Positions 18,540 through 57,232 of a DNA stretch of 64,000 bases are shown here, piece by piece (the first letter of the stretch is position 1; each line of letters begins with the position of its first letter). This DNA is from Flavobacteria bacterium RIFCSPLOWO2_12_FULL_35_11 (lineage in GTDB: Bacteria; Bacteroidota; Bacteroidia; Flavobacteriales; Flavobacteriaceae). The stretch is taken from positions 1,966 to 65,965 of the forward strand of contig MGWK01000032.1 of assembly GCA_001800975.1 (NCBI GenBank). The letters are read 5' to 3'. The translations under genes were made by a program, and so were the position numbers. The notes beneath the pieces were generated by a model that was given only the letters and a program-made list of their open reading frames with translations, had not been told where the DNA came from and searched no databases.

Positions 18540-19226
18540 TTAATAACCTTCAGAGATATTTTTAAGTGCATTTTTATTTAATATTTTAATTTTTTTGCCA
18601 AGCAAATCAATCACGCCATCTTTTTTCAAGTTGGATAATAGCCGTATGGCAGATTCAGTGGCCGTACCAATGGTATTTGCAATTTCTTCTCTTGTTAAAA
18701 TAACGTCTATACAATCTTCATTGTCAATACCGAATATTTCTTCCAAACTTAATAAAGTTTCCGCTAACCTGTCCTTAACCGGTTTTTGAGCCATTTGTGA
18801 AATAGAAGTATTCGCATGACTTAATTGAAGCGATATGTTTTTTATTAAATTTAAAGAAAATTGAGGATTGTCTCTGATGGATTCTAGAATGTCACCTTTA
18901 GGAATAAAACAAACGCGCATATCTTCCAATGCCGTTGCATTCAATCCAACGGGTTCTTCACTTAAAATAGAACGGTGTCCTAAAATATCACCGCCTTTTA
19001 CAAATTTTATGATTTGTTCTTTTCCGTTTGTATTCAGTTTAGTCAATTTACATTTGCCATCTTGAATACAATATAATCCGTTGATAGAATTACCTTCAGT
19101 CATTATATTTTCACCTTTCTTAATAATAAGTGATGTCTTGTGATCTGAAAATCTTTCTAATTCGTCATGCGTTAAAGTTTTAAGAGCGTTAAAACGCTTC
19201 ATAATACAATGTGAACAATTTGACAT
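18540..19226 (-). CDS. fnr: Crp/Fnr family transcriptional regulator (Fnr-like; likely start ATG 19226)
   Basis: MSNCSHC N-terminus, cNMP-binding fold, VCFIP Cys, HTH LTREEIANTIGTATESAIRLLS; divergent from the cbb3 operon. Confidence 0.85.
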   Translation of the reverse strand: MSNCSHCIMKRFNALKTLTHDELERFSDHKTSLIIKKGENIMTEGNSINGLYCIQDGKCKLTKLNTNGKEQIIKFVKGGDILGHRSILSEEPVGLNATALEDMRVCFIPKGDILESIRDNPQFSLNLIKNISLQLSHANTSISQMAQKPVKDRLAETLLSLEEIFGIDNEDCIDVILTREEIANTIGTATESAIRLLSNLKKDGVIDLLGKKIKILNKNALKNISEGY

Positions 19227-19268
19227 ATTAAAAAAGAATTTAGTTAAGTAGTAACATTTGTAAAGGTA

Positions 19269-19276
19269 CAAAAATA
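19269..19276 (-). promoter_or_regulatory. Putative -7 promoter element of fnr
   Basis: TATTTTTG on the minus strand (TAnnTTTG Bacteroidota consensus), about 40 nt upstream of ATG 19226. Confidence 0.55.
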
Positions 19277-19277
19277 A

Positions 19278-19320
19278 ATGATAAATGTCATAATTAGGAA
19301 ATAATAAATCAATATTTTTG
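19278..19320 (+). promoter_or_regulatory. Fnr/Crp-type box plus -7 element of ccoI
   Basis: ATGAT-AAAT-GTCAT (19278-19291), 21-nt spacer, TATTTTTG (19313-19320). Confidence 0.75.
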
Positions 19321-19339: not shown

Positions 19340-21715
19340 ATGGATTTAGATAATTGTTATCATTGCGGCGCATCGTGTGGAAAAAGCCCGAAAATCTTTG
19401 ATGAGAAGCAATTTTGTTGCAATGGATGCAAAACAGTTTATGAGATATTAAGCAACAACGAGTTAGGTTGTTATTATGACTTACAATTAGCACCGGGAAC
19501 TATTCCTTCCGACATAAAAGGCAAGTATAATTATCTTGAAAATGAAGATATCATTGAAAAATTGTTGGAATTTAATGATACAGAAACTTCCGTAGTTAAA
19601 TTTTTTATACCAAGCATTCATTGCAGCTCCTGTATTTGGATTCTTGAAAATTTAACCAAATTAAATGGTGGAGTAACGACTTCCATGGTTAATTTTCCAA
19701 AAAAAACCGTACGAATCACTTTCAAAAATAAAGCAACTAACTTAAAACAATTGGCCGAATTAATGACTACAATTGGTTATGAGCCTTATATAAGTTTGGA
19801 TGATGCGGATGCAATAAAAAATAAAGTAGATAAAACGTTAATTTATCAGGTTTCAATCGCTGCTTTCTGTTTTGGAAATATTATGTTGCTGTCGTTTCCG
19901 GAATATTTTGATGCCGATGAGTTTTGGTTAGAAAAATACAAGCATGTATTTAGATGGCTCATGTTCGCCATGGCCATTCCTGTGGTTTTTTATTCTGCCA
20001 AAAATTATTTTATTTCTGCCTACAAAGGGCTTTCTCATAAAATTTTAAACATTGATGTTCCTATAGCTTTGGGAGTTTCTGTATTATTTATAAGAAGTAC
20101 TGTTGAAATTGTTTTAAATATTGGCTCAGGTTTTTTTGACAGTTTGGCGGGATTGGTTTTCTTTTTGCTTTTGGGGAAATTTTTTCAGCAAAAAACCTAC
20201 AACTTCTTGTCATTTGAACGCGACTATAAATCATATTTTCCAATAGCAGTCACAAAAATTGCGGACGGAATCGAAAAAAATATTCCTGTAAAAGATATTG
20301 AAAGGGGAGATCGCTTATTGATTAGGAATCAGGAGTTAATTCCTGTCGACGGAATTTTGATCAACGGCAATGCGTCCATTGATTATAGTTTTGTGACGGG
20401 GGAATCTTTGCCAGTAACCAAACAATCTGGCGACAAACTTTTTGCAGGCGGAAAACAAACTGCAGGCGCAATAGAAATGGAGGTTGTCAACACCATTTCG
20501 CAAAGTTATTTAACGCAATTGTGGAGCAACGATGTTTTTAATAAAACAACGGATCACACCATAAAAAACATCACTGACACTATCAGTAAATTATTCACTA
20601 TCAATATTTTAACCATTTCTTTTTTAGCCGGTATTTTTTGGTACTTTTATAATTTGTCAATGGTATTTAATGTGGTTACTGCAGTGCTCATTATTGCATG
20701 TCCCTGTGCTTTGGCATTATCGGCACCATTTGCAATCGGTAATATTTTGCGAATTTTTGGTTATAACAAGTTTTATTTGAAAAATGCCGAAACTGTTGAA
20801 AACATTGCAAAAATTAACACCATTATTTTTGATAAAACCGGCACAATAACTTCAACCGACAAGTCACATTTGATTTATAGGGGAGATACATTAAACATTG
20901 ATGAACTTAAAGCTGTTAAAAGTGTATTAAGGGCTTCAAATCATCCTTTAAGCCGATCGCTTTACGAGCATATTCAGGAAGAAGCATTGGTTGATAAACC
21001 AACTCATTTTGAAGAACTGCTTGGTAAAGGCATCCATGCAATCATAAACAATATGGAACTAAAACTTGGCTCGGCCAGTTTTGTTGGCGCAACTTCTTCT
21101 GAAACGAATGAAACGGCAATTCATGTAAAAATAAATAATGAGTACAAAGGAAGTTATATCTTCAAAAACAGCTACAGAGAAGGAACAAAGCACATTTTTG
21201 AAACGCTTTCAAAAAAATATAAATTGGTAATTCTTTCCGGGGATAACGATGGCGAAAAATCATATTTGGAAAAATTATTGCCAAAAAACACCATTTTTCA
21301 ATTTAACCAGAAACCTGAAAACAAATTGGAATATATTAAAAAATTGCAGCAAAACGGAGAGAAAGTAATGATGGTAGGCGATGGTCTTAATGATGCAGGC
21401 GCTTTGGCACAAAGTAATGTTGGAATTGTAATCTCTGAAAATGTAAATGTATTTTCACCTGCCTGTGATGGAATTCTGGATGCGAAATTTTTTAACAATT
21501 TACCAAAGTTGTTAACTATATCAGCTAAAACCATAAGGATTATTAAGACAAGTTTTATCTTAGCTTTTTGTTATAATGTTATAGGAATGTATTTTGCCTT
21601 AACAGGTGCTTTAACCCCAATAATTGCTGCCATTTTAATGCCTGTAAGTTCAATAAGCATTGTAATTTTCGTGACAATTATGACAAATTTAGTTTCAAAA
21701 AAATATTTGAAATAA
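19340..21715 (+). CDS. ccoI: Cu-translocating P1B-type ATPase CcoI/FixI
   Basis: N-terminal CYHC..FCCNGC domain, HMA IHCSSC, TGES, IACPC, DKTGT, SNHPL and GDGLNDA motifs. Confidence 0.93.
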   Translation: MDLDNCYHCGASCGKSPKIFDEKQFCCNGCKTVYEILSNNELGCYYDLQLAPGTIPSDIKGKYNYLENEDIIEKLLEFNDTETSVVKFFIPSIHCSSCIWILENLTKLNGGVTTSMVNFPKKTVRITFKNKATNLKQLAELMTTIGYEPYISLDDADAIKNKVDKTLIYQVSIAAFCFGNIMLLSFPEYFDADEFWLEKYKHVFRWLMFAMAIPVVFYSAKNYFISAYKGLSHKILNIDVPIALGVSVLFIRSTVEIVLNIGSGFFDSLAGLVFFLLLGKFFQQKTYNFLSFERDYKSYFPIAVTKIADGIEKNIPVKDIERGDRLLIRNQELIPVDGILINGNASIDYSFVTGESLPVTKQSGDKLFAGGKQTAGAIEMEVVNTISQSYLTQLWSNDVFNKTTDHTIKNITDTISKLFTINILTISFLAGIFWYFYNLSMVFNVVTAVLIIACPCALALSAPFAIGNILRIFGYNKFYLKNAETVENIAKINTIIFDKTGTITSTDKSHLIYRGDTLNIDELKAVKSVLRASNHPLSRSLYEHIQEEALVDKPTHFEELLGKGIHAIINNMELKLGSASFVGATSSETNETAIHVKINNEYKGSYIFKNSYREGTKHIFETLSKKYKLVILSGDNDGEKSYLEKLLPKNTIFQFNQKPENKLEYIKKLQQNGEKVMMVGDGLNDAGALAQSNVGIVISENVNVFSPACDGILDAKFFNNLPKLLTISAKTIRIIKTSFILAFCYNVIGMYFALTGALTPIIAAILMPVSSISIVIFVTIMTNLVSKKYLK

Positions 21716-21746: not shown

Positions 21747-21789
21747 GTGACAATTATCATTTTTTTTTATGGTGGAAAATATATATTTG
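21747..21789 (+). promoter_or_regulatory. Fnr/Crp-type box plus -7 element of ccoS-NOQP
   Basis: GTGAC-AATT-ATCAT (21747-21760), 21-nt spacer, TATATTTG (21782-21789). Confidence 0.75.
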
Positions 21790-21815: not shown

Positions 21816-22028
21816 ATGGAAGTACTTTATATAACAATAGGCGTAAGCATTATTGTTGCCTTAATTTTTTTCTTTGCATTTATTAAATCAGTTAAGTCTG
21901 GGCAGTATGATGACACCTATACGCCTTCAGTCCGTATGCTGTTTGATGATGAACTGGTTATTGTTAAGAAAAAGGAAGATAAAGAATCAACAAGCAATCA
22001 AAATCAATCAAAAATAACTAACAATTAA
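21816..22028 (+). CDS. ccoS: cbb3 oxidase assembly protein CcoS (start ATG 21816)
   Basis: MEVLYITIGVS...SVKSGQYDD..TPSVRML motif. Confidence 0.93.
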   Translation: MEVLYITIGVSIIVALIFFFAFIKSVKSGQYDDTYTPSVRMLFDDELVIVKKKEDKESTSNQNQSKITNN

Positions 22029-22042
22029 ATAATCAAACAAGT

Positions 22043-24220
22043 ATGGAAAAAGAACAATTTTATTATGACAATAAAATCGTAAAAATGTTTCTTTGGGCCA
22101 CAATTCTTTGGGGAATTGTAGGGATGTTGGTAGGGCTGACGGTTGCGCTGCTTTTTATATACCCGGGTTTATTGGAATTTGCGGGATCGGGTGATGCCAT
22201 TTCATGGTTAAGCTTTGGCCGTTTAAGACCGCTGCATACAAATGCAGTAATTTTTGCTTTTGTGGGCAACGGAATTTTTTTAGGAGTTTATTATTCTACC
22301 CAAAGATTGCTTAAAGCGAGAATGTTTAACGAAGTTTTAAGCAGAATTCATTTTTGGGGCTGGCAGGCAATTATTGTTGCAGCTGCAATTACATTGCCTT
22401 TAGGGTTAACATCCTCTAAAGAGTACGCAGAATTAGAATGGCCAATAGATATTGCCGTTGTTGTAATTTGGGTGGTGTTTGGAATTAATTTAATCGGAAC
22501 GATATTAAAAAGAAGGCAACGCCATATTTACGTGGCAATTTGGTTTTATATAGCAACCTTAGTTACCATTGCGGTACTTTATATATTTAACAATTTAGAA
22601 ATGCCTGTATCCGCATTCAAAAGCTACTCGGTTTATTCGGGTGTGCAAGATGCGCTTGTTCAGTGGTGGTATGGACATAATGCAGTGGCATTTTTCTTAA
22701 CCACACCAGTATTGGGATTAATGTATTATTTTGTTCCAAAAGTGGCAAACAGGCCGGTTTATTCTTATCGATTGTCCATTATTCACTTCTGGACTTTGAT
22801 ATTTTTGTACATCTGGGCAGGTCCTCACCATTTATTATATACGGCTTTACCGGAATGGGCCCAAAACTTGGGAACTGTTTTCTCAATAATGTTGATTTTC
22901 CCATCTTGGGGAGGTATGATTAACGGACTGTTAACCTTGCGAGGTGCTTGGGATAAAGTTCGTGAAAATCCGGTATTGAAATTCTTTGTGGTTGCAATTA
23001 CTGGTTACGGTATGGCAACTTTTGAAGGACCAATGTTGTCGTTTAAAAATGTAAACGCAATTGGCCACTATACCGATTGGATAGTTGGTCACGTACATAT
23101 CGGCGCTTTGGCCTGGAATGGTTTTATGGTGGCAGGTATTGTTTATTGGCTGGCTGAAAAACTTTGGAAAACAGAATTGTACTCAAAAAAATTAGCCAAT
23201 ACGCATTTCTGGCTAGGTACTTTGGGCATACTATTTTATGCAATTCCGTTATATGTGGCTGGGTTTACCCAAGCATTTATGTGGAAACAGTTTAATCCGG
23301 ATGGTACTTTAGTTTACGGGAACTTTTTAGAAACAGTGACCCAAATTTTACCGATGTATATGATGCGTGCCATTGGAGGCACTTTATACTTAACCGGTTT
23401 TATTTTATTGGCAATTAACGTCATTAAAACAGCCAGAGCAGGTTCTCCTGTTGAGGATGAATTGGCTGAAGCGGCGCCATTGAAAAAAATTAGCGGACAA
23501 AGAATTGCCGGGGAAGGATGGCATACTTGGTTAGAAAGAAGAACTGTATTGTTCACCATCTTAACCACAATTGCCATTTTAATTGGCGGTTTGGTTGAAC
23601 TTGTGCCTTTAATGTTGGTGAAATCAAACGTTCCTACAATTGCAAGCGTAAAACCATATACTCCTTTGGAATTGGAAGGAAGAGATATTTATATTCGTGA
23701 GGGATGCAACAATTGCCATTCTCAAATGATCCGTCCTTTCCGTTCAGAAGTTGAACGTTATGGAGAATATTCAAAAGCAGGTGAGTTTGTTTACGATTTC
23801 CCATTCTTGTGGGGTTCAAGAAGAACAGGGCCGGATGTGCATAGAGTTGGAGGAAAATACAATGACAATTGGCACTTTAACCATATGTCCGATCCACGTT
23901 CCACATCACCGGGCTCAATTATGCCACGTTATTCTTGGTTAATTAAAAACGATATGAATGCCTCAAATTTGGAAAGTAAAATGAAAGGATTGGTAACATT
24001 GGGTGTTCCTTATACTGCTGAAGAAATTACTGGCGCCAAACAAAAATTGATGGAGCAGGCAAAATTAATTGAAGGCAATTTAAGACAAGATCCCGAATTT
24101 GTAAAAAATTATGGATCAAGCAATATTCAGAATAAGGAAATTGTTGCGCTTATAGCTTATTTACAGCGTTTAGGCACTGATATTAAAGCGAATACAAAAA
24201 CGGCACTAAAAAATAATTAA
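22043..24220 (+). CDS. ccoN: cbb3-type cytochrome c oxidase fused subunit I/II (CcoNO)
   Basis: RPLHTNAVIF, WWYGHNAV, GPHH and GHVH ligands; C-terminal CcoO with EGCNNCHSQ and GSRRTGPD. Confidence 0.97.
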   Translation: MEKEQFYYDNKIVKMFLWATILWGIVGMLVGLTVALLFIYPGLLEFAGSGDAISWLSFGRLRPLHTNAVIFAFVGNGIFLGVYYSTQRLLKARMFNEVLSRIHFWGWQAIIVAAAITLPLGLTSSKEYAELEWPIDIAVVVIWVVFGINLIGTILKRRQRHIYVAIWFYIATLVTIAVLYIFNNLEMPVSAFKSYSVYSGVQDALVQWWYGHNAVAFFLTTPVLGLMYYFVPKVANRPVYSYRLSIIHFWTLIFLYIWAGPHHLLYTALPEWAQNLGTVFSIMLIFPSWGGMINGLLTLRGAWDKVRENPVLKFFVVAITGYGMATFEGPMLSFKNVNAIGHYTDWIVGHVHIGALAWNGFMVAGIVYWLAEKLWKTELYSKKLANTHFWLGTLGILFYAIPLYVAGFTQAFMWKQFNPDGTLVYGNFLETVTQILPMYMMRAIGGTLYLTGFILLAINVIKTARAGSPVEDELAEAAPLKKISGQRIAGEGWHTWLERRTVLFTILTTIAILIGGLVELVPLMLVKSNVPTIASVKPYTPLELEGRDIYIREGCNNCHSQMIRPFRSEVERYGEYSKAGEFVYDFPFLWGSRRTGPDVHRVGGKYNDNWHFNHMSDPRSTSPGSIMPRYSWLIKNDMNASNLESKMKGLVTLGVPYTAEEITGAKQKLMEQAKLIEGNLRQDPEFVKNYGSSNIQNKEIVALIAYLQRLGTDIKANTKTALKNN

Positions 24221-24221
24221 T

Positions 24222-24419
24222 ATGTTAAAATTTATATCACATAATTTTGATGGAATGAACGGAATTGAAATTTACCCGATCATTTCATTATTGCTGTTTT
24301 TTATAGTTTTTGTCACAATGTTAATTATTGTCATAAAAATGCCTAAAAACAGAATCGACGAATTAAGCCAATTACCATTAGATAACGACACTAACAGTAA
24401 AGAAAATAATCATGAATAA
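24222..24419 (+). CDS. ccoQ: cbb3 oxidase subunit CcoQ
   Basis: 65 aa, one TM, ..LPLD motif, located between ccoNO and ccoP. Confidence 0.85.
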   Translation: MLKFISHNFDGMNGIEIYPIISLLLFFIVFVTMLIIVIKMPKNRIDELSQLPLDNDTNSKENNHE

Positions 24420-25056
24420 GAATTCAGAAAAGATATCGGGCTGGAAAAGATTTATGAAATCTATGACCAAAGCTCACGATTTAGGAACCGAAGAAGATAT
24501 CATGCTCGATCACGATTATGATGGCATTAAGGAACTTGACAATGTTTTGCCGCCTTGGTGGCTGGCAGGTTTTTATATAACCATCGCCATCAGTATTTTT
24601 TATATTATTATGGCGGTAGGTTTCAATAAATACAATCAGGATGATGAGCTAAACGATGAAATGACTGCTGCAAAAGAAGAAATTGAAGCCTATAAAGCTG
24701 CAAATCCACAATTATTTGATGATGCAAACATTGTTGCTTATACAGATGCCGAAAATTTGGCAAAAGGAAAAGAACTGTTTACCACCAAAACTTGTGTTGT
24801 ATGCCATATAGCGGATTTAGGCGGAAGTATTGGCCCGAATTTAACAGACAATCGTTGGATTTTAGGAGGAGATGTTAAAAGTATTTTTAATACCTTAACA
24901 AACGGAGGAAGGCCAGGGAAAGGAATGATCGCTTGGGAAAGTACCATCACAAGAGAAGAAAGAATACTATTGGCAAGTTATATTATCTCCATGCAGGGAA
25001 CAAAGCCTGCGGCTCCAAAAGAGGCGCAAGGAGATATTATTTGGCCTGCAGAATAA
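24412..25056 (+). CDS. ccoP: cbb3 oxidase subunit III CcoP (mono-haem)
   Basis: DHDYDGIKELDNVLPPWW; single CVVCH; GPNLTD; GM.AW motifs. Confidence 0.92.
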   Translation: MNKNSEKISGWKRFMKSMTKAHDLGTEEDIMLDHDYDGIKELDNVLPPWWLAGFYITIAISIFYIIMAVGFNKYNQDDELNDEMTAAKEEIEAYKAANPQLFDDANIVAYTDAENLAKGKELFTTKTCVVCHIADLGGSIGPNLTDNRWILGGDVKSIFNTLTNGGRPGKGMIAWESTITREERILLASYIISMQGTKPAAPKEAQGDIIWPAE

Positions 25057-25066
25057 TAAAGAGAAT

Positions 25067-25118
25067 TCATATTAAAAAACAAAAACCCTCTTTTGAGGGT
25101 TTTTGTTTTTTAATATGA
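25067..25118 (+). terminator. Strong hairpin terminator between ccoP and ccoG
   Basis: 24-bp perfect stem TCATATTAAAAAACAAAAACCCTC-TTTT-GAGGGTTTTTGTTTTTTAATATGA. Confidence 0.8.
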
Positions 25119-25235
25119 TTGGTTAATAATAGCCAATTTTTTATTTTTTTTGTCGTCTTTGTAACCAAGTGGTTGATTAATTAATCTTAAATTTACAAAT
25201 TGATAGAAAATAGAGAATTGCCTTTTAAACTTAGC

Positions 25236-26651
25236 ATGAAAACAGAAAATAAAGAGAGATTTAGAGATTCCATTGGAACAATAGATGAAAGCGGAAAGCG
25301 AAATTTTATTTTTCCAAAGAAACCAAAAGGAAAATTATACAATTATAGAACAATCGTAAGCTGGGTGCTTTTGGCATTTATGTTTGCGGCGCCTTTTATT
25401 AAAATAAACGGAAATCAGTTTTTGCTTTTTAATGTTATTGAACGCAAATTTCATATTTTCGGATTCCCTTTTTGGCCGCAAGATTTTCACTTGCTGGTAA
25501 TTTCAATGCTTGTAAGCGTTGTGTTTATTATATTATTTACGGTGGTTTTTGGCCGAATATTTTGTGGATGGATTTGTCCGCAAACTATTTTTATGGAAAT
25601 GATTTTCAGAAAAATAGAATATTTAATTGATGGAGACAGAACCAAACAAATTAAACTGGAAAAACAAGCTTGGAATGGAGAAAAAATTAGGAAACGCGTC
25701 ACAAAATGGATTGCTTTTTTTCTAATATCATTTATAATTGCAAATGTTTTCTTTGCTTACATTATTGGCAGCGATGTTTTAATTGAACATATCACCGATG
25801 GCCCTTTTAACCATATAGGAACCTTAATTAAATTGTTGGTTTTTACCTTGGTATTCTATTTTGTATTCGCTTGGTTTAGGGAACAAGTTTGCATTATTGT
25901 TTGTCCCTATGGCCGATTACAAGGTGTTCTTTTAGACAATAAGTCCATTAATGTAGCCTATGATTTTGTTAGGGGAGAAGGCGAAAAAGGCAGAAAACCG
26001 GTGCGTAAAGGTGAAAATAGAGATGAATCCGGTTATGGTGATTGTGTAGAATGTATGCAATGCGTTCAGGTTTGTCCAACGGGAATTGACATTAGAAATG
26101 GCACGCAATTGGAATGTATTAATTGCACAGCCTGTATTGATGCTTGCGATGAAATAATGGACACTGTAGGTTTTGAAAGAGGCTTGATTCGTTACGCTTC
26201 CGAAGACAATATAGAAAAGAAGGAAAAATTAAAATTTAATGCGCGTTTAATTGCTTATTCTACCTTATTGACCATATTGGTTGGCGTACTTATTACAATG
26301 ATATTTTTAAGAAATGATGTAGAAGCCACCATTTTAAGATTGCCTGGCCAAATTTTTCAAACTACGGAAACTACCGTAAAAAATGTTTATACGTTTAAAT
26401 TGATAAATAAAACCACTGAAAATATTGAGGACATTGAATTTAAATTAATTTCCCATAAAGGAGCAATAGAATTGATAGGCGGACTTTCCAAAGTCGAAAA
26501 ACAAGGATTAAAGGAAGGCACATTATTTATTGAAATTGATAAAAAAGATTTAAATTCGTCAAATGAAAAATTGAAAGTTGGGGTGTATTCACAAGGAAAA
26601 TTAATTGAAAAAACCACCACCACTTTTGCTGGACCAATAAAAATTGATTAA
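25236..26651 (+). CDS. ccoG: Cytochrome c oxidase accessory ferredoxin CcoG/FixG (TTG 25200 is an alternative start)
   Basis: GRIFCGWICPQT, CIIVCPYGRLQ, CVECMQCVQVCPTGIDIR and CINCTACIDAC motifs. Confidence 0.95.
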   Translation: MKTENKERFRDSIGTIDESGKRNFIFPKKPKGKLYNYRTIVSWVLLAFMFAAPFIKINGNQFLLFNVIERKFHIFGFPFWPQDFHLLVISMLVSVVFIILFTVVFGRIFCGWICPQTIFMEMIFRKIEYLIDGDRTKQIKLEKQAWNGEKIRKRVTKWIAFFLISFIIANVFFAYIIGSDVLIEHITDGPFNHIGTLIKLLVFTLVFYFVFAWFREQVCIIVCPYGRLQGVLLDNKSINVAYDFVRGEGEKGRKPVRKGENRDESGYGDCVECMQCVQVCPTGIDIRNGTQLECINCTACIDACDEIMDTVGFERGLIRYASEDNIEKKEKLKFNARLIAYSTLLTILVGVLITMIFLRNDVEATILRLPGQIFQTTETTVKNVYTFKLINKTTENIEDIEFKLISHKGAIELIGGLSKVEKQGLKEGTLFIEIDKKDLNSSNEKLKVGVYSQGKLIEKTTTTFAGPIKID

Positions 26652-27104
26652 ATGAAGTTTAAAATTAGCTGGCCAACAGGCATTATTATTGCAATGTCGG
26701 CATTCATCATATTTATACTGTCTTTTGTTTACAAGGCCACTTTTATGCCTCAATATGACCATCATTTAGTTTCTGATGATTATTATAAAGACGAATTGAA
26801 TTACCAACAGGAAATTGATAAATTGAATAAAGCGGCAACATTGAAGAAAGACGTTACGTTAACTAAAGTGGCTGAAGGTTTGTTAATTAAGTTTCCGACT
26901 GAATTTGATCCCGAAAAAATAACGGGAACAATTTCATTTCAACGACCTTCTAACGATAAAATTGATTTTGAACTTCCCATAAAATTAATAACTGCCGACT
27001 ATTTAATATCAGATGATAATTTGGTGCAAGGAATTTGGAATGTGAAAATTGAATGGGTTATTAACGGCACCACTTATTTATTTAAGGAGAAATTAATGTA
27101 TTAA
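26652..27104 (+). CDS. fixH: FixH/CcoH family protein
   Basis: W..GI......F.......DLV..DYY..EL.YQ..ID pattern; position in the cco operon. Confidence 0.88.
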   Translation: MKFKISWPTGIIIAMSAFIIFILSFVYKATFMPQYDHHLVSDDYYKDELNYQQEIDKLNKAATLKKDVTLTKVAEGLLIKFPTEFDPEKITGTISFQRPSNDKIDFELPIKLITADYLISDDNLVQGIWNVKIEWVINGTTYLFKEKLMY

Positions 27105-27105
27105 T

Positions 27106-27846
27106 ATGCTTTGGACTGCACTTATTTTAGGTTTGGCGGGCGGATTTCACTGTATTGGAATGTGCGGACCAATTGCGTTCATAATTCCGGTTAACAGGTC
27201 CTCAAATACCTCGTTAATTTTTCAAACCTTTTTATATCATTTTGGCAGGTTGTTGAGTTATTCATTAATAGGATTGCTTTTTGGTTTTATAGGAAAAGGG
27301 TTGTATTTGGCAGGTTTTCAACAACGTTTGTCAATTTTAATGGGTGTTATAATGATTGTTACCATTTTAATGCCTGTTTCAGTCTTTAACAAATACAATT
27401 TTTCAAAACCGCTATATAAAATTATTGCTCGGGTTAAATACAATCTCGGAATTTATCTTAACAAAAAATCGAACAAAGCCTTATTTTCAATCGGTTTTTT
27501 TAACGGTCTTTTACCTTGCGGCTTGGTGTATATCGCTGTAATTGGTTCAATTTCAACCGGCAACGCTGTTCAGGGCGCTTTATATATGGCTTTATTTGGT
27601 GTGGGAACGATTCCGATGATGACCGCAGCGGTGTTATTGGGAAATTTTGTAAGTGTATCCTTGCGTGCTAAATTTCAAAAAATTATCCCTGTTTTTGTTA
27701 TTATAATCGGATTATTATTTATTTTGCGAGGACTGGGATTGGGAATTCCATATTTTTCACCTTCTGATGCAAAATTACAGCCAGCAAGTGACCCGGAAAT
27801 TTGTTTAACTTTTGAAAAAATAGACTATAATGCAAGAATCTCCTAA
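27106..27846 (+). CDS. DsbD_2 / TauE-SafE-like membrane protein (cbb3 maturation)
   Basis: GGFHCIGMCGPIA and GLLPCGLVY..FG.GTIP motifs. Confidence 0.88.
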   Translation: MLWTALILGLAGGFHCIGMCGPIAFIIPVNRSSNTSLIFQTFLYHFGRLLSYSLIGLLFGFIGKGLYLAGFQQRLSILMGVIMIVTILMPVSVFNKYNFSKPLYKIIARVKYNLGIYLNKKSNKALFSIGFFNGLLPCGLVYIAVIGSISTGNAVQGALYMALFGVGTIPMMTAAVLLGNFVSVSLRAKFQKIIPVFVIIIGLLFILRGLGLGIPYFSPSDAKLQPASDPEICLTFEKIDYNARIS

Positions 27847-28687
27847 ATTGACGATGGAAGATTTTGAAAAAGTTTCTTCAAATCAAGAACTTTTAAAACT
27901 CATTAAGGAAAAAAATATTCCTTTTGATAAAGTCGCAAAACGATTGTTTTATGAAGTAGAGCTGCGCAATTTACAAATTGAATTGGTGAAGCTGCAACAG
28001 TGGATTACAAAAAATAAAATGCGGGTGGCCATCATTTTTGAAGGACGCGATGCCGCTGGAAAAGGAGGGAATATTCGCAGGTTTACGGAACATTTGAATC
28101 CGCGTGCCATGAATGTGGTGGCATTAACAAAACCTACAGAAATTGAGCGTGGCCAATGGTATTTTAGACGATATATTAAAGAAATGCCAAACACCGGGGA
28201 AATTGTATTTTTCGATAGAAGTTGGTACAACAGGGCTGTTGTTGAGCCGGTTATGGGTTTTTGTACAGAAACTCAATATCAAAATTTTATGGTTCAGGTT
28301 TCTGAATTTGAACATATGATGTATGAAGATGGCATGGTTTTAATAAAATTTTGGTTTTCAATTTCAAAAGAAGAACAATTGTCTCGCTTTAATGCGCGTA
28401 TTGCAACACCTTTAAAACGTTGGAAATTTAGTCCGGTCGACAGGAAAAGTCAGGAGCTTTGGGATCAATACACACATTACAAAGAACAAATGTATAGCCG
28501 AACACACACCAGCTATAGCCCGTGGATTACCGTGAAGGCAAACGACAAAAAATTGGCGCGTTTGGAAAGCATCAGATATGTGCTGTCCCAATTTAACTAT
28601 GAAGGAAAAGAAAATGCTTCCACCATATTATTTCCAGATCCAAATATTGTGATGCGTTATTACCGTTCAGCCAAACAAATTGATTAA
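27830..28687 (+). CDS. ppk2: Polyphosphate kinase 2, copy 1
   Basis: FEGRDAAGKGG Walker A, FDRSWYNR Walker B and KRWKFSPVD lid. Confidence 0.95.
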   Translation: MQESPKLTMEDFEKVSSNQELLKLIKEKNIPFDKVAKRLFYEVELRNLQIELVKLQQWITKNKMRVAIIFEGRDAAGKGGNIRRFTEHLNPRAMNVVALTKPTEIERGQWYFRRYIKEMPNTGEIVFFDRSWYNRAVVEPVMGFCTETQYQNFMVQVSEFEHMMYEDGMVLIKFWFSISKEEQLSRFNARIATPLKRWKFSPVDRKSQELWDQYTHYKEQMYSRTHTSYSPWITVKANDKKLARLESIRYVLSQFNYEGKENASTILFPDPNIVMRYYRSAKQID

Positions 28688-28689
28688 TC

Positions 28690-29478
28690 ATGGAGTCCTA
28701 TAAATTAACCGAAAAAGACGTAGAAATTCTTAACACAAATAAGGGATTAAGAGCTTTATTTTCAAAAGAGCCCTATAATTTAGAGAAGGCTGTCAGGTAT
28801 GTTAGATATGAAAATAAATTAAAAAAACTTCAGGTTGAACTCATAAGACTTCAAACTTGGGCAATTGAAGAAAATGAACGAATTATCATCATCTTTGAAG
28901 GAAGGGATGTGGCCGGAAAAGGCGGTGCAATAAGGCGCGCAACCGAACGGATGAATCCTCGGCATTATCGTATAGTTGCCTTGTCAAAACCTACGGAAGA
29001 TGAGCGATCACAATGGTATTTTCAACGTTATGTAATTCAATTTCCTAAAGCCGGTGAGATCATTTTTTTCGACAGAAGCTGGTATAACAGGGCCGTAGTT
29101 GCTCCTGTAAACGGTTTTTGCACGCAACAAGAATATGAAACTTTCATGAATCAGGTAAATGAATTTGAACGTATGATTACCGAATCGGGCATTCATTTGG
29201 TTAAAATTTACATGTCTATCTCAAAGAAAGAACAAGCGAAACGTTTTGAGGACTTAAAAAGCGACCCATTAAAACAATGGAAAATAACGCCGGTTGATGA
29301 AAGAGCCCAAGAGTTATGGGATGTATATACGTACTATAAAAATAAAATGTTTGCAAAAACAAAAGAAGGCGTAGTTGCCTGGAAAATAATTAAAGCGAAT
29401 AAAAAAACGTATGCCAGGGTAGTGGCAATTAACCATATTTTAAGCAGTATTCCTTATGATAAAAAGAGGGAAGTTTAA
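28690..29478 (+). CDS. ppk2: Polyphosphate kinase 2, copy 2
   Basis: FEGRDVAGKGG, FDRSWYNR and KQWKITPVD motifs. Confidence 0.95.
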   Translation: MESYKLTEKDVEILNTNKGLRALFSKEPYNLEKAVRYVRYENKLKKLQVELIRLQTWAIEENERIIIIFEGRDVAGKGGAIRRATERMNPRHYRIVALSKPTEDERSQWYFQRYVIQFPKAGEIIFFDRSWYNRAVVAPVNGFCTQQEYETFMNQVNEFERMITESGIHLVKIYMSISKKEQAKRFEDLKSDPLKQWKITPVDERAQELWDVYTYYKNKMFAKTKEGVVAWKIIKANKKTYARVVAINHILSSIPYDKKREV

Positions 29479-30812: not shown

Positions 30813-30855
30813 AGGACATTTATCATATAATAAAGCGTAATTAGCATTATATTTG
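30813..30855 (+). promoter_or_regulatory. Degenerate Fnr/Crp-type box plus -7 element of pta-ackA
   Basis: AGGAC-ATTT-ATCAT (30813-30826), 21-nt spacer, TATATTTG (30848-30855). Confidence 0.65.
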
Positions 30856-30871
30856 CACAAAATTAAAAATA

Positions 30872-32965
30872 ATGAAAAAAGCCATATATATAGCAACCAG
30901 TGAAGCTAACAGTGGTAAGTCAATTGTCACTTTGGGGTTGATGAGGATGTTGTTGGGGAAAACTGCAAAAGTCGGTTATTTCAGACCTATCATTGACAAT
31001 GTCAAAAAAGGTAAAAAGGACAACCATATCAATACCATTATTTCACATTTTCAATTAGATATTAAGCCTAATGATGCTTATGCGTTTACACGAAGTGAAT
31101 TTATAAATATGCGGAATAATGGAAAAGAAGGGGAAATATTCGACACCATTATTTCAAAATACAAAGCGTTAGAAGAAAAAAACGATTTTATGCTGGTTGA
31201 AGGCACCGACTTTTCAGGTGAAGGAATGGCCATTGAATTGGATGCAAATATTTTAATCGCCAAAAATTTAGGAATCCCTGCAATAATCGTTTCTAGCGGT
31301 GTTGGTAAAACATTGGATGAATTTATAGAAGGATTGCATTTGGCTTATGATTCCTTCAAAGAAAAAGAAGTGGAAGTTTTGGCGGTTATTGCCAATAAAG
31401 TTCAGGAAAAAAACATTGAGATTGTTAAAAACGGCGTTGAAAAAAACTTGCCAAAAGATGTTTTTGTAAATGTGATTCCGTTGATAGCCTCGTTAAACAA
31501 TCCAACTATAAAAGAAATTGCAAAAGCTATTGATGCTAAGATTTTGTTTGGTAAAGAACTTATAAATAACCAAACGACAAGTTTTAAGGTTGGGGCCATG
31601 CAATTGCGGAACTATTTAAAACAGTTAGAAGAAAATTGTTTAATCATTACGCCGGGCGACAGAGCCGACATTATTTTAGGAGCTTTACAGGCTAATATTT
31701 CTACCAATTATCCTTCAATTTCAGGAATCGTTTTAACAGGCGGCATTCTTCCTGAAGAACCTATTATTAAGTTAATTGAAGGTTTGCCTCAAATTGTTCC
31801 AATATTAACAGTTAATGAAGGAACCTTTGATGTGGCCAATAAAATTGGGGCAGTTCGTTCTCATATGTATGCTGAAAATAAAGAAAAAATCAATATTTCT
31901 TTAAATACCTTCGACAAGTATGTTGAAGTTGATAAATTGAATGATAAATTAATTACCTTTAAAAGCACTGGAATTACGCCAAGAATGTTTCAATATAATT
32001 TATTGAAACGCGCAAAAAAGATAAGAAAACATATTGTATTGCCGGAAGGTAATGACGACAGAATTATAACGGCAGCTGCACGTTTGGTTCAGAGTGATAT
32101 TGTTGATTTGACTATTTTGGGAACTAAAAGCAATATTGAAAATAAAATACTTCAATTGGGTCTGAAATTAGATTTAGACAAAGTGAAAATTATCAACCCA
32201 ATAGAATCTGAATATTATCAGGATTTCAGCAATACCTTATTTGAACTTAGGAAAGACAAAGGCTTAACCATTGATATGGCAGAAGATTTGATGAGCGATG
32301 TTTCCTATTTTGGAACGATGATGGTTTATAAAGGATTGGCTGACGGAATGGTTTCTGGAGCAGCGCATACCACACAACACACCATTAAACCTGCGTTGCA
32401 GTTTATTAAAACCAAACTGGGCGTTTCAGTGGTTTCCTCCATCTTTTTTATGTGTTTGGAAGACAGAGTTTCTGTTTTTGGCGATTGTGCTATCAACCCG
32501 AACCCAACTTCTGAGCAGTTGGCAGAAATTGCAATTTCTTCAGCAGAATCAAGCATAAATTTTGGAATGGAGCCAAAAATAGCGATGCTTTCTTACTCAT
32601 CGGGCGCCTCAGGAAAAGGGGAAGATGTTGAAAAAGTGAGAAGGGCTACCGAAATTATCAGGGAAAAAAGACCGGATTTAAAAGTGGAAGGTCCAATTCA
32701 ATATGATGCAGCGGTTGATGCCACCATCGGAAAAAGCAAAATGCCCGATTCTGAAGTTGCAGGACGCGCAAACGTATTAATCTTTCCCGATTTAAATACA
32801 GGAAACAATACTTATAAAGCAGTTCAAAGAGAAACTGGCGCATTGGCAATCGGCCCGATGTTACAGGGTTTAAACAAGCCGGTAAACGATTTAAGCAGAG
32901 GATGCACGGTAGACGATATTTTTAATACCGTAATATTAACAGCAATACAAGCACAAGGATTTTAA
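30872..32965 (+). CDS. pta: Phosphate acetyltransferase (long form with DRTGG domain)
   Basis: SGKSIVTLG N-domain, TPGDRAD, LPEGND.RI, GPIQYDAA and GPMLQGL.KPVNDLSRG motifs. Confidence 0.96.
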   Translation: MKKAIYIATSEANSGKSIVTLGLMRMLLGKTAKVGYFRPIIDNVKKGKKDNHINTIISHFQLDIKPNDAYAFTRSEFINMRNNGKEGEIFDTIISKYKALEEKNDFMLVEGTDFSGEGMAIELDANILIAKNLGIPAIIVSSGVGKTLDEFIEGLHLAYDSFKEKEVEVLAVIANKVQEKNIEIVKNGVEKNLPKDVFVNVIPLIASLNNPTIKEIAKAIDAKILFGKELINNQTTSFKVGAMQLRNYLKQLEENCLIITPGDRADIILGALQANISTNYPSISGIVLTGGILPEEPIIKLIEGLPQIVPILTVNEGTFDVANKIGAVRSHMYAENKEKINISLNTFDKYVEVDKLNDKLITFKSTGITPRMFQYNLLKRAKKIRKHIVLPEGNDDRIITAAARLVQSDIVDLTILGTKSNIENKILQLGLKLDLDKVKIINPIESEYYQDFSNTLFELRKDKGLTIDMAEDLMSDVSYFGTMMVYKGLADGMVSGAAHTTQHTIKPALQFIKTKLGVSVVSSIFFMCLEDRVSVFGDCAINPNPTSEQLAEIAISSAESSINFGMEPKIAMLSYSSGASGKGEDVEKVRRATEIIREKRPDLKVEGPIQYDAAVDATIGKSKMPDSEVAGRANVLIFPDLNTGNNTYKAVQRETGALAIGPMLQGLNKPVNDLSRGCTVDDIFNTVILTAIQAQGF

Positions 32966-34150
32966 ATGAAGATATTAGTTATAAATTCAGGCAGTTCATC
33001 CATTAAATATCAATTATTCAGGATGCCTGAAGAAGAAGTTATTTGTTCAGGATTGGTGGAGCGGATTGGCTCAAAAGATGCCGAAATCCACTATAAATCG
33101 AATCATACCAAAATTGATGAGGTATTAGATATTCCAAATCACACGGTTGGCTTGGAAAAAGTTGTCAATCTTTTATTGGATGAAAAAATTGGCGTTATAA
33201 AATCTACTTCAGAAATAGTGGCCGTTGGCCATAGAGTGGTTCACGGCGGAAGCACTTTTTCAAACACAACCATCATTAATCAGGAAGTTAAAGACAAAAT
33301 AAAAACGTTGTTTTCCTTGGCGCCACAACACAATCCGGCAAATTACGAAGGAATTGTGGTTGCGGAATCATTTTTCCCAAATGCAAAACAAATTGCTGTT
33401 TTTGATACCGCTTTTCACCAAACTATTCCGGTTGAAGCCTATAAATATGCCATTCCGACTAAATTTTTAGTGGAAGACAATATTCGTTTGTATGGTTTCC
33501 ACGGAACAAGCCATAAATATGTTTCGGAACAAGCAATTGAACATTTGGGTCTGAAAAATTCAAAAATAATTACCATTCATTTGGGAAATGGCTGCAGTAT
33601 GACGGCCGTTAAAGACGGAAAAAGCATTGACCACACACTTGGTTTCGGACCGGTTACCGGACTTATTATGGGAACAAGAAGCGGCGATATAGACCACGCC
33701 ATTATTTTTCATTTGGTTAATAATTTGGGATATTCGCTAGATGAAGTGAATAATTTGCTTCAAAAAGAAAGCGGTATGTTTGGTTTAACGGGTTACAGTG
33801 ATTTGCGTGACATTGAATCGGAAGCTGAAAAAGGAAATAAGGAATGTCAGTTGGCATTGGATATGAATGCTTACCGAATTAAAAAATATATTGGTGCTTA
33901 TGCAGCTGCCATGAATGGGCTGGATGCCATCATATTTACTGCAGGAATAGGAGAGAACTCAAGTTTTATAAGAAAGCTGGTTTGTACAAATATGGACTAT
34001 TTTGGAATAGAATTGGATGCCAAAAAAAACAATATCAGGGCAAAGGAACTTACTGAAATTCATACGCAACATTCAAAAACAAAGATTTTAATTGTGCCAA
34101 CCAACGAAGAAGTTGAAATTGCCAAGCAGTCTTTTGAATTGCTCAATTAG
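32966..34150 (+). CDS. ackA: Acetate kinase
   Basis: ILVINSGSSSIKYQL, GHRVVHGG, VFDTAFHQT, YGFHGTSH and FTAGIGEN motifs. Confidence 0.97.
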   Translation: MKILVINSGSSSIKYQLFRMPEEEVICSGLVERIGSKDAEIHYKSNHTKIDEVLDIPNHTVGLEKVVNLLLDEKIGVIKSTSEIVAVGHRVVHGGSTFSNTTIINQEVKDKIKTLFSLAPQHNPANYEGIVVAESFFPNAKQIAVFDTAFHQTIPVEAYKYAIPTKFLVEDNIRLYGFHGTSHKYVSEQAIEHLGLKNSKIITIHLGNGCSMTAVKDGKSIDHTLGFGPVTGLIMGTRSGDIDHAIIFHLVNNLGYSLDEVNNLLQKESGMFGLTGYSDLRDIESEAEKGNKECQLALDMNAYRIKKYIGAYAAAMNGLDAIIFTAGIGENSSFIRKLVCTNMDYFGIELDAKKNNIRAKELTEIHTQHSKTKILIVPTNEEVEIAKQSFELLN

Positions 34151-34161
34151 CTCAATAAGAG

Positions 34162-34203
34162 AAATAAAAAAAGCATTGAAAATTTTCAATGCTTTTTTTA
34201 TTT
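34162..34203. terminator. 42-bp perfect palindrome / bidirectional terminator (ackA/fumC)
   Basis: AAATAAAAAAAGCATTGAAAA|TTTTCAATGCTTTTTTTATTT. Confidence 0.88.
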
Positions 34204-35614: not shown

Positions 35615-35704
35615 ATTATTATGTTTTTCGATTTTGATGAATCACAAAGTTACCAATTATGGTGTTTTAGTCTATAAAGTTGCTCATTTTTTTTGATTCA
35701 TTTG

Positions 35705-35718
35705 GTGAGAAATATCAC
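35705..35718. promoter_or_regulatory. Candidate Fnr/Crp-type box in the fumC / small-ORF divergent region
   Basis: GTGAG-AAAT-ATCAC (GTGA-N6-TCAC palindrome). Confidence 0.45.
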
Positions 35719-45955: not shown

Positions 45956-45997
45956 AAGAGTACACATAAAATATAAATTGATAAATCTCAAATTAAA

Positions 45998-56775: not shown

Positions 56776-56789
56776 ATGATTTTTATCAG
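56776..56789 (+). promoter_or_regulatory. Candidate Fnr/Crp-type box upstream of the 127-aa hypothetical gene
   Basis: ATGAT-TTTT-ATCAG; only a degenerate -7 (CGAATTTT) at the 21-nt spacing. Confidence 0.55.
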
Positions 56790-56848: not shown

Positions 56849-57232
56849 ATGGAAAGTCAGTTAGTATTCTTAAGTGATCTGAACTTTAACTTAGATGTTT
56901 GGAAAAGAGAGTTGAAGTTTCAAGAAAGTGAAATGGATTATTTTGAAGAAAAGTTAGAGCATATTGTTATGCGTAGCCCCGGAACTGAGGTTCTGGTTCA
57001 ATTAGAAGGTTTTCAGAATAAGATAATCCGTGAACGCGAAGTTATGGGTCATTTAAGGCATAGAATTCGAATGAAAAGGAGAGAATTGGCACATCAAGGC
57101 CATATTGAAAAAAATAATGAGGCGCAATTTCATGAAAAACAAGTGTTGTTAAAAGATGAAATGAAAACATTTGTAAATATGCATTACCAGCTTAAGGAAA
57201 AGATGATGGATTTCTTCCTGAAATATTTGTAG
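56849..57232 (+). CDS. Hypothetical all-helical protein
   Basis: 127 aa; W..EL.F...E...FE..L...V and L..FQN pattern; His-rich; own terminator. Confidence 0.8.
   Translation: MESQLVFLSDLNFNLDVWKRELKFQESEMDYFEEKLEHIVMRSPGTEVLVQLEGFQNKIIREREVMGHLRHRIRMKRRELAHQGHIEKNNEAQFHEKQVLLKDEMKTFVNMHYQLKEKMMDFFLKYL

Follow-up and report, generated by a model that had tools for sequence, protein, structure and literature searches.

A 14-base palindrome that lies between an fnr-like gene and ccoI in the 64,000-nucleotide stretch of DNA analysed here (hereafter the window) very probably serves, judged from its sequence, as the DNA site for a low-oxygen regulator of the FNR type. Sites of this type occur upstream of ccoI, ccoS and pta at a non-random spacing to the −7 promoter element, both the sites and the spacing are conserved across genera, and the genes that follow them are a low-oxygen set. 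We consider it likely that an FNR-type dimer of Bacteroidota uses the palindrome as its operator; this dimer would most probably be encoded by the neighbouring gene, would activate in a class II-like manner and would repress fnr itself. The identity of the binding protein, the direction of its effect (activation or repression), the transcription start sites (TSSs) used in this host and the sensing of O2 are what we infer from the features described below.

The boxes and their distance to the −7 element

The window belongs to a species of Lutibacter (Flavobacteriaceae; G+C content 34%), and its fnr-like gene is ~100% identical to one in a Lutibacter MAG. This gene (18540–19226, minus strand) encodes a Crp/Fnr family protein of 228 aa, with the Pfam domains cNMP_binding and HTH_Crp_2. 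Divergent from it, on the plus strand, runs ccoI (19340–21715), which encodes a fixI-type copper P1B ATPase and is followed on the same strand by ccoS (FixS/CcoS; 21816–22028), ccoNO (a fused CcoNO; 22043–24220), a small ORF between ccoNO and ccoP (24222–24419), ccoP (24412–25056), ccoG (25200–26651) and ccoH/FixH (26652–27104). The genes from ccoS through ccoH (21816–27104) are tightly packed and probably form a single operon. On the 3′ side of ccoH we found a gene for a DsbD_2-family membrane protein, two PPK2 genes, an amidohydrolase gene on the opposite strand, pta (30872–32965, plus strand) together with ackA (32966–34150, plus strand), and fumC on the opposite strand. We saw no upstream sensor of the FixLJ type in the window. 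The gene names of the initial annotation proved right, the assignments being a Crp/Fnr regulator, a P1B ATPase of the CcoI type, FixS/CcoS, a fused CcoNO, pta and ackA.

The palindrome common to the divergent fnr and ccoI promoters, box 1 (ATGATAAATGTCAT, 19278–19291), is separated from the ccoI −7 element (TATTTTTG, 19313–19320, plus strand) by a gap of exactly 21 nt (19292–19312), and the coordinates thus bear out the distance given in the initial annotation. Box 2 (GTGACAATTATCAT, 21747–21760, plus strand) lies upstream of ccoS-ccoNOQP-ccoGH, and box 3 (AGGACATTTATCAT, 30813–30826, plus strand), whose weak distal half-site reads AGGAC, lies upstream of pta-ackA. Both are followed after 21 nt by the −7 element TATATTTG (21782–21789 at ccoS and 30848–30855 at pta, both on the plus strand), so that all three promoters carry TAnnTTTG, as TATTTTTG at ccoI and as TATATTTG at ccoS and pta. 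That this spacing recurs at ccoS and pta had been thought unlikely to arise by chance. Within the window, the composite KGAY-N4-RTCA-N22-TAnnTTTG indeed occurs three times, at ccoI, ccoS and pta; 100 dinucleotide-preserving shuffles yielded no match, and a chance origin of the composite motif is excluded. TAnnTTTG by itself was not enriched in the window (113 observed versus 112 expected).

A PWM built from the ccoS promoters of other genera only was applied to the 64-kb window. Its four best sites there were at 19278, 21747, 56776 and 30813, all of them intergenic, and the sites ranking below these four were weaker and lay inside genes. Box 1 obtained the top score in the window (20.0 bits), followed by box 2 (14.3 bits), a candidate box 4 (third-best, 14.2 bits) and box 3 (12.6 bits). 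The consensus RTGAY-WWWT-RTCAY that the initial annotation had drawn from five sites did not hold up, as it fits just two sites of the window and the pta site departs from it with AGGAC; the consensus that the sequences give is [A/C]TGAY-AWWT-RTCAT.

TSS mapping in F. psychrophilum shows that the −7 box spans −12 to −5 (PMC9723704). Because of this placement, the box centre would fall at −40.5 with a 21-nt gap and at −41.5 with a 22-nt gap; for ccoI, this would put the TSS at ~19325 and the centre of box 1 at −40.5. With the TSS taken from the related genus in this way, boxes at 21/22 nt occupy the class II position (centre near −41.5), in agreement with the centre near −41 that had been suggested for box 1. 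No recognisable −33 element (TTG/TTTG) was found at the ccoI and pta promoters of the window, which fits activator dependence and is not proof of it; the Flavobacterium promoter has been quoted as TTG-N17-23-TAnnTTTG (10.1101/172254).

To follow the fnr/ccoI region in other genomes, we collected 79 loci by Fnr protein search. The box, as ATGAY-N4-RTCAT, was present upstream of fnr in all of ~50 Lutibacter genomes (Fnr identity 76–100%), and the gap on the ccoI side to TAnnTTTG was 21 nt in nearly all of these ~50 loci, with a spacer whose sequence drifts. Galbibacter, Joostella, Capnocytophaga and Paenimyroides likewise have the box ahead of fnr. Over all loci fetched with Fnr, the distances from box to TAnnTTTG peaked at 21 nt (81 cases) and 22 nt (14 cases), and smaller peaks at 1 and 9 nt corresponded to the fnr side. 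The divergent order of fnr and ccoI is kept in Lutibacter and Capnocytophaga; in Galbibacter and Joostella, the same locus contains a ccoS-type box ~2.5 kb ahead of fnr.

The ccoS promoters were assembled without use of the motif, by picking 80 ccoS loci from >30 Flavobacteriaceae genera with the CcoS protein alone. A TGA-N6-TCA palindrome was present in 79 of the 80, located 61–81 nt ahead of the start codon, and, counted from the box, the T and the A of the −7 element stood at exactly 22 nt in 77 and 78, respectively, of the 79. Since the leader has taken up indels, so that the distance from box to start codon drifts over 20 nt, while the gap from box to −7 element is fixed, these data point to selection on the spacing and not to shared ancestry alone. 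Stacked without gaps, the promoters read AAA-n-[A/C]TGAY-AAAT-[G/a]TCAT-n-TTTT, followed by a stretch of ~17 positions with little information and by TA-n-T-TTT-[G/A]. The promoter-proximal half-site TCAT (79/79) was stricter than the distal half, and the TTTT found right behind the box family-wide, which precedes the −7 element by 17 nt, occupies the place expected for a −33 element. The gap between box and −7 element at ccoS was 22 nt in Galbibacter, Joostella, Paenimyroides and a Flavobacterium, and 21 or 22 nt in Lutibacter. From these alignments, 22 nt is the norm of the family, with 21 nt predominating at ccoI, ccoS and pta of Lutibacter.

The boxes of 66 pta loci, collected by protein search, fell at 21/22 nt (n = 25), 23 nt (n = 1), 43/44 nt (n = 15) or 52–54 nt (n = 5) from the −7 element and at no other distances. 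A pta box at 21/22 nt was seen in two separate clades, namely the close relatives of the window and, in the form CTGATTTTGGTCAT, many Flavobacterium species. In most other Lutibacter the pta box is usually GTGACAAAAGTCAC and lies 43 nt away, and in a few genomes the distance is 52–54 nt. The boxes at 43 nt are mostly GTGAC-N4-GTCAC and could be the site of a different Crp/Fnr paralogue. Expressed as centres, gaps of 21/22, 43/44 and 52–54 nt correspond to approximately −41.5, −62.5 and −72.5, the steps between them amounting to about two and one helical turns. CRP and FNR act from similar positions, −41.5 at class II promoters and −61.5 and −71.5 at class I promoters. Helical phasing of this kind suggests an activator that contacts RNA polymerase, as a simple blocking repressor does not need it. 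At class II Fnr promoters the site overlaps the −35 region, with the Fnr site at −42 (PMC5934665). The initial annotation had made its reading depend on conservation in orthologous promoters, and the motif is kept in the fnr/ccoI region of ~50 Lutibacter, in 79/80 ccoS promoters and in the two pta clades.

On the fnr side, a −7 element had been placed 1 nt from the box. Such an element is literally there (CAAAAATA, which is TATTTTTG on the minus strand; 19269–19276, which would centre the box at ~−20.5), but the positionally conserved element lies 9 nt away (TACCTTTA, 19261–19268, minus strand, which would centre the box at ~−28.5). Most Lutibacter species have TACATTTG at 9 nt from the box on this side, and Capnocytophaga and Paenimyroides have the fnr-side −7 element at 8 nt. 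In the close relatives of the window, TACCTTTA at 9 nt is overlapped by a perfect TATTTTTG at 1 nt; a few species have the 1-nt element alone, and in one clade the fnr −7 element is 32–33 nt away. On this comparison, TACCTTTA at 9 nt is more likely to be the fnr −7 element than the one at 1 nt, which is unlikely to represent the ancestral promoter. Whichever of the two elements is used, the box would lie between about −35 and −14, inside the core promoter. It is reasonable to suppose that a bound dimer would repress fnr, although the case is weaker than that for activation; as the fnr-side position varies by clade (1, 8–10 or 32–33 nt), autorepression may not be universal.

Genes downstream of the motif in other genomes

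A database scan of one genome per species for ATGAY-N4-RTCAT-N21/22-TAnnTTTG returned at least 120 loci. The matches listed were nearly all from Bacteroidota (Flavobacteriaceae, Chitinophagaceae, Cytophagales and Sphingobacteriales), with some from Ignavibacteria and Chlorobiota, and several of the few matches listed from other phyla had no gene start downstream. The unselected boxes present in these loci spiked at 22 nt, with 13 cases over a background of ~0.5 per bin, and had minor peaks near 44 and 54 nt.

The 102 proteins encoded downstream of the matches listed included 8 FixS/CcoS proteins, 10 cytochromes c, 3 universal stress proteins (Usp) and 8 radical-SAM proteins with a HemN-type N-terminus, one of which was checked and scored above the NCBIfam HemN cut-off. 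Because ccoS and hemN are each one gene in several thousand, 8 of 102 represents a >100-fold enrichment. Also downstream of the matches listed were genes for pyruvate phosphate dikinase (PPDK)/PEP synthase, 2-oxoacid:acceptor oxidoreductase (OFOR), the B12-dependent ribonucleotide reductase NrdJ, a peroxiredoxin, a thioredoxin-reductase-like flavoprotein and a glutamyl-tRNA reductase-like protein (recognised by eye), as well as pta, ccoI, ccoN, a RIC/YtfE-type gene and a Crp/Fnr paralogue. By these family assignments the downstream set is a low-oxygen set, made up largely of high-affinity or O2-independent alternatives.

In F. psychrophilum, O2 limitation induces the cbb3 operon, with which hemN and a monoheme cytochrome c are co-expressed, and hypoxia also induces a peroxiredoxin and genes of heme synthesis; the hypoxia study names neither a regulator nor a motif (PMC9723704). 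The motif-linked set overlaps this measured response in cbb3, hemN, cytochrome c and peroxiredoxin, and the box with its spacing is a candidate explanation for the hypoxia-induced cluster.

The Fnr-like protein and the rival readings

The Fnr-like protein matched the Pfam families cNMP_binding (67.3 bits, cut-off 27.5), HTH_Crp_2 (59.1, cut-off 27) and Crp (28.6, cut-off 21), and thereby has the N-terminal cNMP-binding-type beta-roll and, at its C-terminus, the Crp-type helix-turn-helix of the Crp/Fnr superfamily. The best NCBIfam family was Fnr (NF008365) with 85.6 bits, below the cut-off of 228. All sequence matches in the PDB were Crp/Fnr proteins, the closest being 2gau (E = 1.8e-26), a Crp/Fnr-family regulator of P. 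gingivalis, with A. fischeri FNR lower down; the N-terminal 70 residues gave weak cNMP-domain matches at most among the PDB chains.

We used A. fischeri FNR (5cvr) as the reference for alignment, and the E. coli FNR sequence was confirmed against it. Residues C4 and C7, which form an N-terminal CxxC, correspond in this alignment to FNR C20 and C23, and C106, in the beta-roll, to C122; these cysteines are conserved in 72–73 of 73 orthologues. The position of FNR C29 is occupied by N, S or T in all 73 and never by Cys, so that among the four cysteines that ligate the cluster in E. coli FNR (C20, C23, C29 and C122) the equivalent of C29 is missing. A further cysteine, C53, is conserved in 68/73 orthologues and is located in the strand matching FNR ‘LYAIRSG’, which presumably adjoins the C122 strand in the FNR fold; on this alignment C53 may be the fourth cluster ligand. 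O2 would then be sensed through an Fe-S cluster held by C4, C7, C106 and possibly C53. The case for O2 sensing by a [4Fe-4S] cluster is weakened by the NCBIfam score, far below its cut-off, and by the missing Cys29 equivalent.

In the recognition helix (TATESAIR versus VETISR in FNR), Glu and Arg are kept, Ser212 is replaced by Ile and Val208 by Thr. Glu209 and Arg213 of FNR read the TGA core of the site, and V208 and S212 discriminate FNR sites from CRP sites. The Thr/Ile changes in the helix go together with ATGA replacing TTGA at the outer end of the box. A loop conserved among the orthologues, GKEQI, aligns with GDEQI (activating region 3) of FNR.

In the preferred reading, the regulator, when active and presumably at low O2, would bind [A/C]TGAY-N4-RTCAT as a dimer. 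At ccoI, ccoS-ccoNOQP-ccoGH and pta-ackA the dimer would sit at about −40.5/−41.5, against the −33 region, and from this class II position the activator would touch RNA polymerase. Activation would switch on high-affinity respiration, its copper supply and assembly factors, and acetate fermentation. At fnr, where the box is 1–9 nt upstream of the −7 element, the dimer would hinder the polymerase and so bring about autorepression. A more detailed version of this model has an FNR-type activator of Bacteroidota working under the positional code of E. coli sigma-70 (~−41.5, −62.5 and −72.5), although the primary sigma factor of the phylum reads a −33/−7 promoter, with the CxxC, C53 and C106 as cluster ligands and the Thr/Ile pair reading ATGA. 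We advance this version tentatively, with the balance tipping slightly against all of its parts being right together; if true, it would give Flavobacteria a first concrete and testable model of how transcription is activated and O2 sensed.

The palindrome may instead be a real Crp/Fnr operator that is bound by a paralogue other than the neighbour, or whose signal is not O2 but, for example, NO, redox state, a nucleotide or carbon status, a possibility that we regard as unlikely. Flavobacteria carry several Crp/Fnr paralogues, one of which is itself encoded downstream of the motif, and the adjacent fnr-like gene therefore need not encode the binder. The neighbour protein, below the FNR family cut-off and without the Cys29 equivalent, would agree with another binder or another signal, and the outermost base of the box, which varies among A, C, G and T, together with the CRP-like GTGAC...GTCAC boxes at class I positions, would agree with another binder. 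However, the box is found in the fnr promoter region of every Lutibacter examined and of four other genera, and a box in the promoter of a regulator’s own gene is the usual comparative-genomics link between regulator and motif. As for the signal, the RIC/YtfE-type gene among the downstream genes speaks for something other than O2, this family being tied in other bacteria to nitrosative and Fe-S damage, but the four conserved cysteines speak for O2, as do the downstream genes, which are high-affinity or O2-independent alternatives (cbb3, HemN, NrdJ and OFOR) and some of which are hypoxia-induced in F. psychrophilum.

The remaining alternatives concern what the box does at the promoter. It is improbable that the regulator represses ccoI, ccoS and pta, masking the −33 region from −41 in air and releasing these promoters at low O2. 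Simple occlusion needs no gap fixed within 1 bp across >30 genera; boxes recur at helical-turn positions (22, 43 and 53 nt), and a site at −62 or −72 occludes nothing; and the ccoI and pta promoters of the window are without a −33 element, as activator-dependent promoters would be. What a repressor would explain is that the box abuts or overlaps the −33 region, and repression has been proposed for the same box at fnr. The fixed spacing to the −7 element would also be expected if the box were a part of the promoter, for example an UP-like element or an upstream element read by an alternative sigma factor, rather than the site of a dimeric regulator; the greater conservation of the proximal TCAT (79/79) than of the distal half, and the TTTT that comes next, could be read in the same way. 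This is very improbable in view of the evident two-fold symmetry of the box, which has the TGA-N6-TCA arrangement of Crp/Fnr sites, its use in both orientations at divergent promoters, its occurrence also at 43 and 53 nt, and the usual sigma-A TAnnTTTG as the downstream element. A coincidence of three 21-nt spacings, for which the AT-rich intergenic DNA of a genome at 34% G+C, with 113 copies of TAnnTTTG in the window, might seem an easy source, has a negligible probability, given the shuffles without a single composite match and the retention of box and spacing in hundreds of orthologous and non-orthologous promoters.

Known systems and further sites

Compared to the class II sites of E. coli FNR, the box has the same 14-bp palindromic form, an identical TGA-N6-TCA core and a predicted centre at ~−40.5/−41.5; it likewise abuts the upstream promoter element, and its alternative positions are whole helical turns away. 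The protein resembles E. coli FNR in its Crp/Fnr fold, in the Glu and Arg that read DNA, in its equivalents of C20, C23 and C122, and in being a regulator with a site in its own promoter. E. coli FNR has sites at −41.5 and is autoregulated. The box had been described as distinct from the E. coli TTGAT-N4-ATCAA, which holds for the outermost base only, as the core TGAY-N4-RTCA is the same. This base is A or C in the distal half and always A in the proximal half (read as T at position 14), whereas in E. coli FNR sites it is T. The promoters also differ, being of the Bacteroidota −33/−7 type (TAnnTTTG) here and of the −35/−10 type in E. coli. The site would work like that of FNR; the family score, Cys29, Ser212 and the outer base depart from FNR wholly or in part.

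The proteobacterial regulators FixK, FnrN and Anr target fixNOQP/ccoNOQP, fixGHIS/ccoGHIS and hemN. The genes found here resemble these anaerobox regulons in comprising cbb3 genes, the ccoGHIS maturation genes and hemN, and family and box core are the same; the differences are the phylum, the promoter type and the addition, in the Flavobacteriaceae set, of pta-ackA, PPDK, OFOR, NrdJ and Usp. Within the same superfamily and phylum are the P. gingivalis 2gau protein, HcpR and B. thetaiotaomicron BT4338/MalR, which are tied to nitrosative stress or carbohydrate use (for MalR, PMC8510549) and are not known to be tied to the cbb3 oxidase. In the searchable papers we found no report of a fixed spacing to the −7 element for the 2gau protein, HcpR or MalR. 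An anammox-reactor study (PMC8510549) took the Crp/Fnr homologue of its Flavobacteriales to be MalR. The ‘CRP-like motif’ described for Chlorobaculum (10.1101/172254) lacks a spacer and is not the same motif. A search of the openly accessible full-text literature found no published description of an FNR-type box in Flavobacteria.

The RNA polymerase of Bacteroidota uses an unusual −33/−7 promoter. To our knowledge, very little is known about transcription activation in this phylum, and few of its regulators have defined sites. The present analysis yields a portable rule, in which [A/C]TGAY-N4-RTCAT precedes TAnnTTTG by 21–22 nt or stands one to three turns of the helix further upstream, and which can be used for annotating marine, freshwater and fish-pathogenic Flavobacteriaceae. 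It also yields a candidate regulator together with a predicted regulon for low oxygen (the cbb3 oxidase with its maturation genes, hemN, NrdJ, OFOR, PPDK, pta-ackA, cytochromes c and Usp). The classic spacing rule of E. coli activators is apparently extended to a phylum with unusual promoters, and whether the contacts between activator and polymerase are conserved with a divergent sigma factor becomes testable.

Candidate box 4 (ATGATTTTTATCAG, 56776–56789, plus strand) is intergenic and lies 59 nt before the gene of a 127-aa helical protein; TAnnTTTG is absent at 21/22 nt from it. The family of the 127-aa protein was not recognised, and the protein has a weak likeness to proteins downstream of the motif elsewhere (E = 0.011 and 0.089). 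We list this site as a candidate member of the regulon. Three more occurrences of TGA-N6-TCA in the window were discarded as boxes, the one at 34176 because it is the stem of a terminator hairpin and those at 35705 and 45978 because of a low PWM score.

In one RNA-labelled run with the locus, the stored contig covers the whole fnr-ccoI intergenic region, with no transcript ends readable from it. The DNA of the locus was found mostly in groundwater, soil and sediment metagenomes.

Two-box layouts and a conserved spacer end between fnr and ccoI

We compared the fnr-ccoI intergenic regions across Lutibacter species (loci L001-L058) and found that the final 10-11 nt of the spacer separating the predicted Fnr-type palindrome (the box, with a TGA-N6-TCA core) from ccoI are conserved as AATAAAT[C/G]AA (window 19302-19312), whereas the first half of this spacer shows no such conservation. 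This conserved stretch directly adjoins the ccoI -7 element (TAnnTTTG) on its upstream side; one possibility is that it extends the -7 region, another that it forms a second site. Two boxes, 9 nt apart, were observed in the intergenic region of Lutibacter maritimus (L044) and of a Lutibacter MAG (L046). In both loci, 9 nt separate one of the boxes from the fnr -7 element. The other box has the ccoI -7 element at a distance of 21 nt in L. maritimus, and no TAnnTTTG follows the corresponding ccoI-side box in the MAG. From this layout, it looks as if both roles of the single box in the window were split between two boxes.

The composite motif in other genomes

The composite motif (box, gap of 21/22 nt and TAnnTTTG) was also found, at 22 nt, in sister phyla of Bacteroidota, namely in two Ignavibacteria loci (L192 and L205) and one from Chlorobiota (L178), and the box-spacing rule may be valid beyond Bacteroidota. 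Approximately 123 nt downstream of the motif, both Ignavibacteria loci have the start of a pntA-like transhydrogenase gene. A second Crp-family protein, lacking N-terminal cysteines, is encoded directly downstream of the motif in L227 and possibly in L198; its position in L227 suggests a regulator cascade. We also detected a conserved 603-aa protein (MKKTHSFHIPVMGIGFTIDTPLKVAQYG...) after the motif in three unrelated genomes (L161, L229, and L232). The single copy scanned (L161) gave no NCBIfam match, and the gene is a candidate low-oxygen gene.

Other TGA-N6-TCA sites in the window

The third-best match in the window to the weight matrix (PWM) built from ccoS promoters of other genera was ATGATTTTTATCAG (56776-56789), with TAnnTTTG absent at 21/22 nt from it. 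An ORF (56849-57232) starts 59 nt beyond this site and encodes a 127-aa helical protein, which had no Pfam family and showed weak similarity (E = 0.011) to, and colinearity with, small proteins whose genes come after the composite motif in two further Flavobacteriaceae (L174 and L179).

Upstream of fumC, which is on the minus strand, GTGAGAAATATCAC (35705-35718) lies 52 nt from TAACTTTG (35645-35652, minus strand), a distance that fits the 52-54 nt class known from some of the pta promoters analyzed here. Because its PWM score is low (3.1), GTGAGAAATATCAC may be a chance occurrence or a site for another paralogue. TTGATAAATCTCAA (45978-45991) closely resembles the E. coli-type FNR consensus, and its score with the Flavobacterial PWM is also low (2.6); only 6 nt separate its end from the point (45998) at which the coding sequence of a beta-eliminating lyase begins. 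Although aaaaaaagcaTTGAAAATTTTCAAtgcttttttt (34166-34199) contains TGA-N6-TCA, we rejected it as a regulator site: located where the convergent genes ackA and fumC meet, it forms a hairpin with runs of A and T on its flanks and has the appearance of a terminator acting in both directions.

Second pta palindrome and genes after the cco cluster

In pta upstream regions of Lutibacter species other than that of the window (L098, L102, L106, L116, and L119-L122), we noted a further palindrome (TGGTTAACCA or TGGTTGACCA) located between the -7 element and the class-I-position box (43/44 or 52-54 nt from that element), with two copies in L120. The window's pta promoter lacks this palindrome, to which a different regulator probably binds.

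On the same strand as the cco cluster, and after it, are the genes for a DsbD_2-family membrane protein and then two tandem PPK2 (polyphosphate kinase 2) proteins (27106-29478); these genes may share a transcript with those for oxidase maturation.
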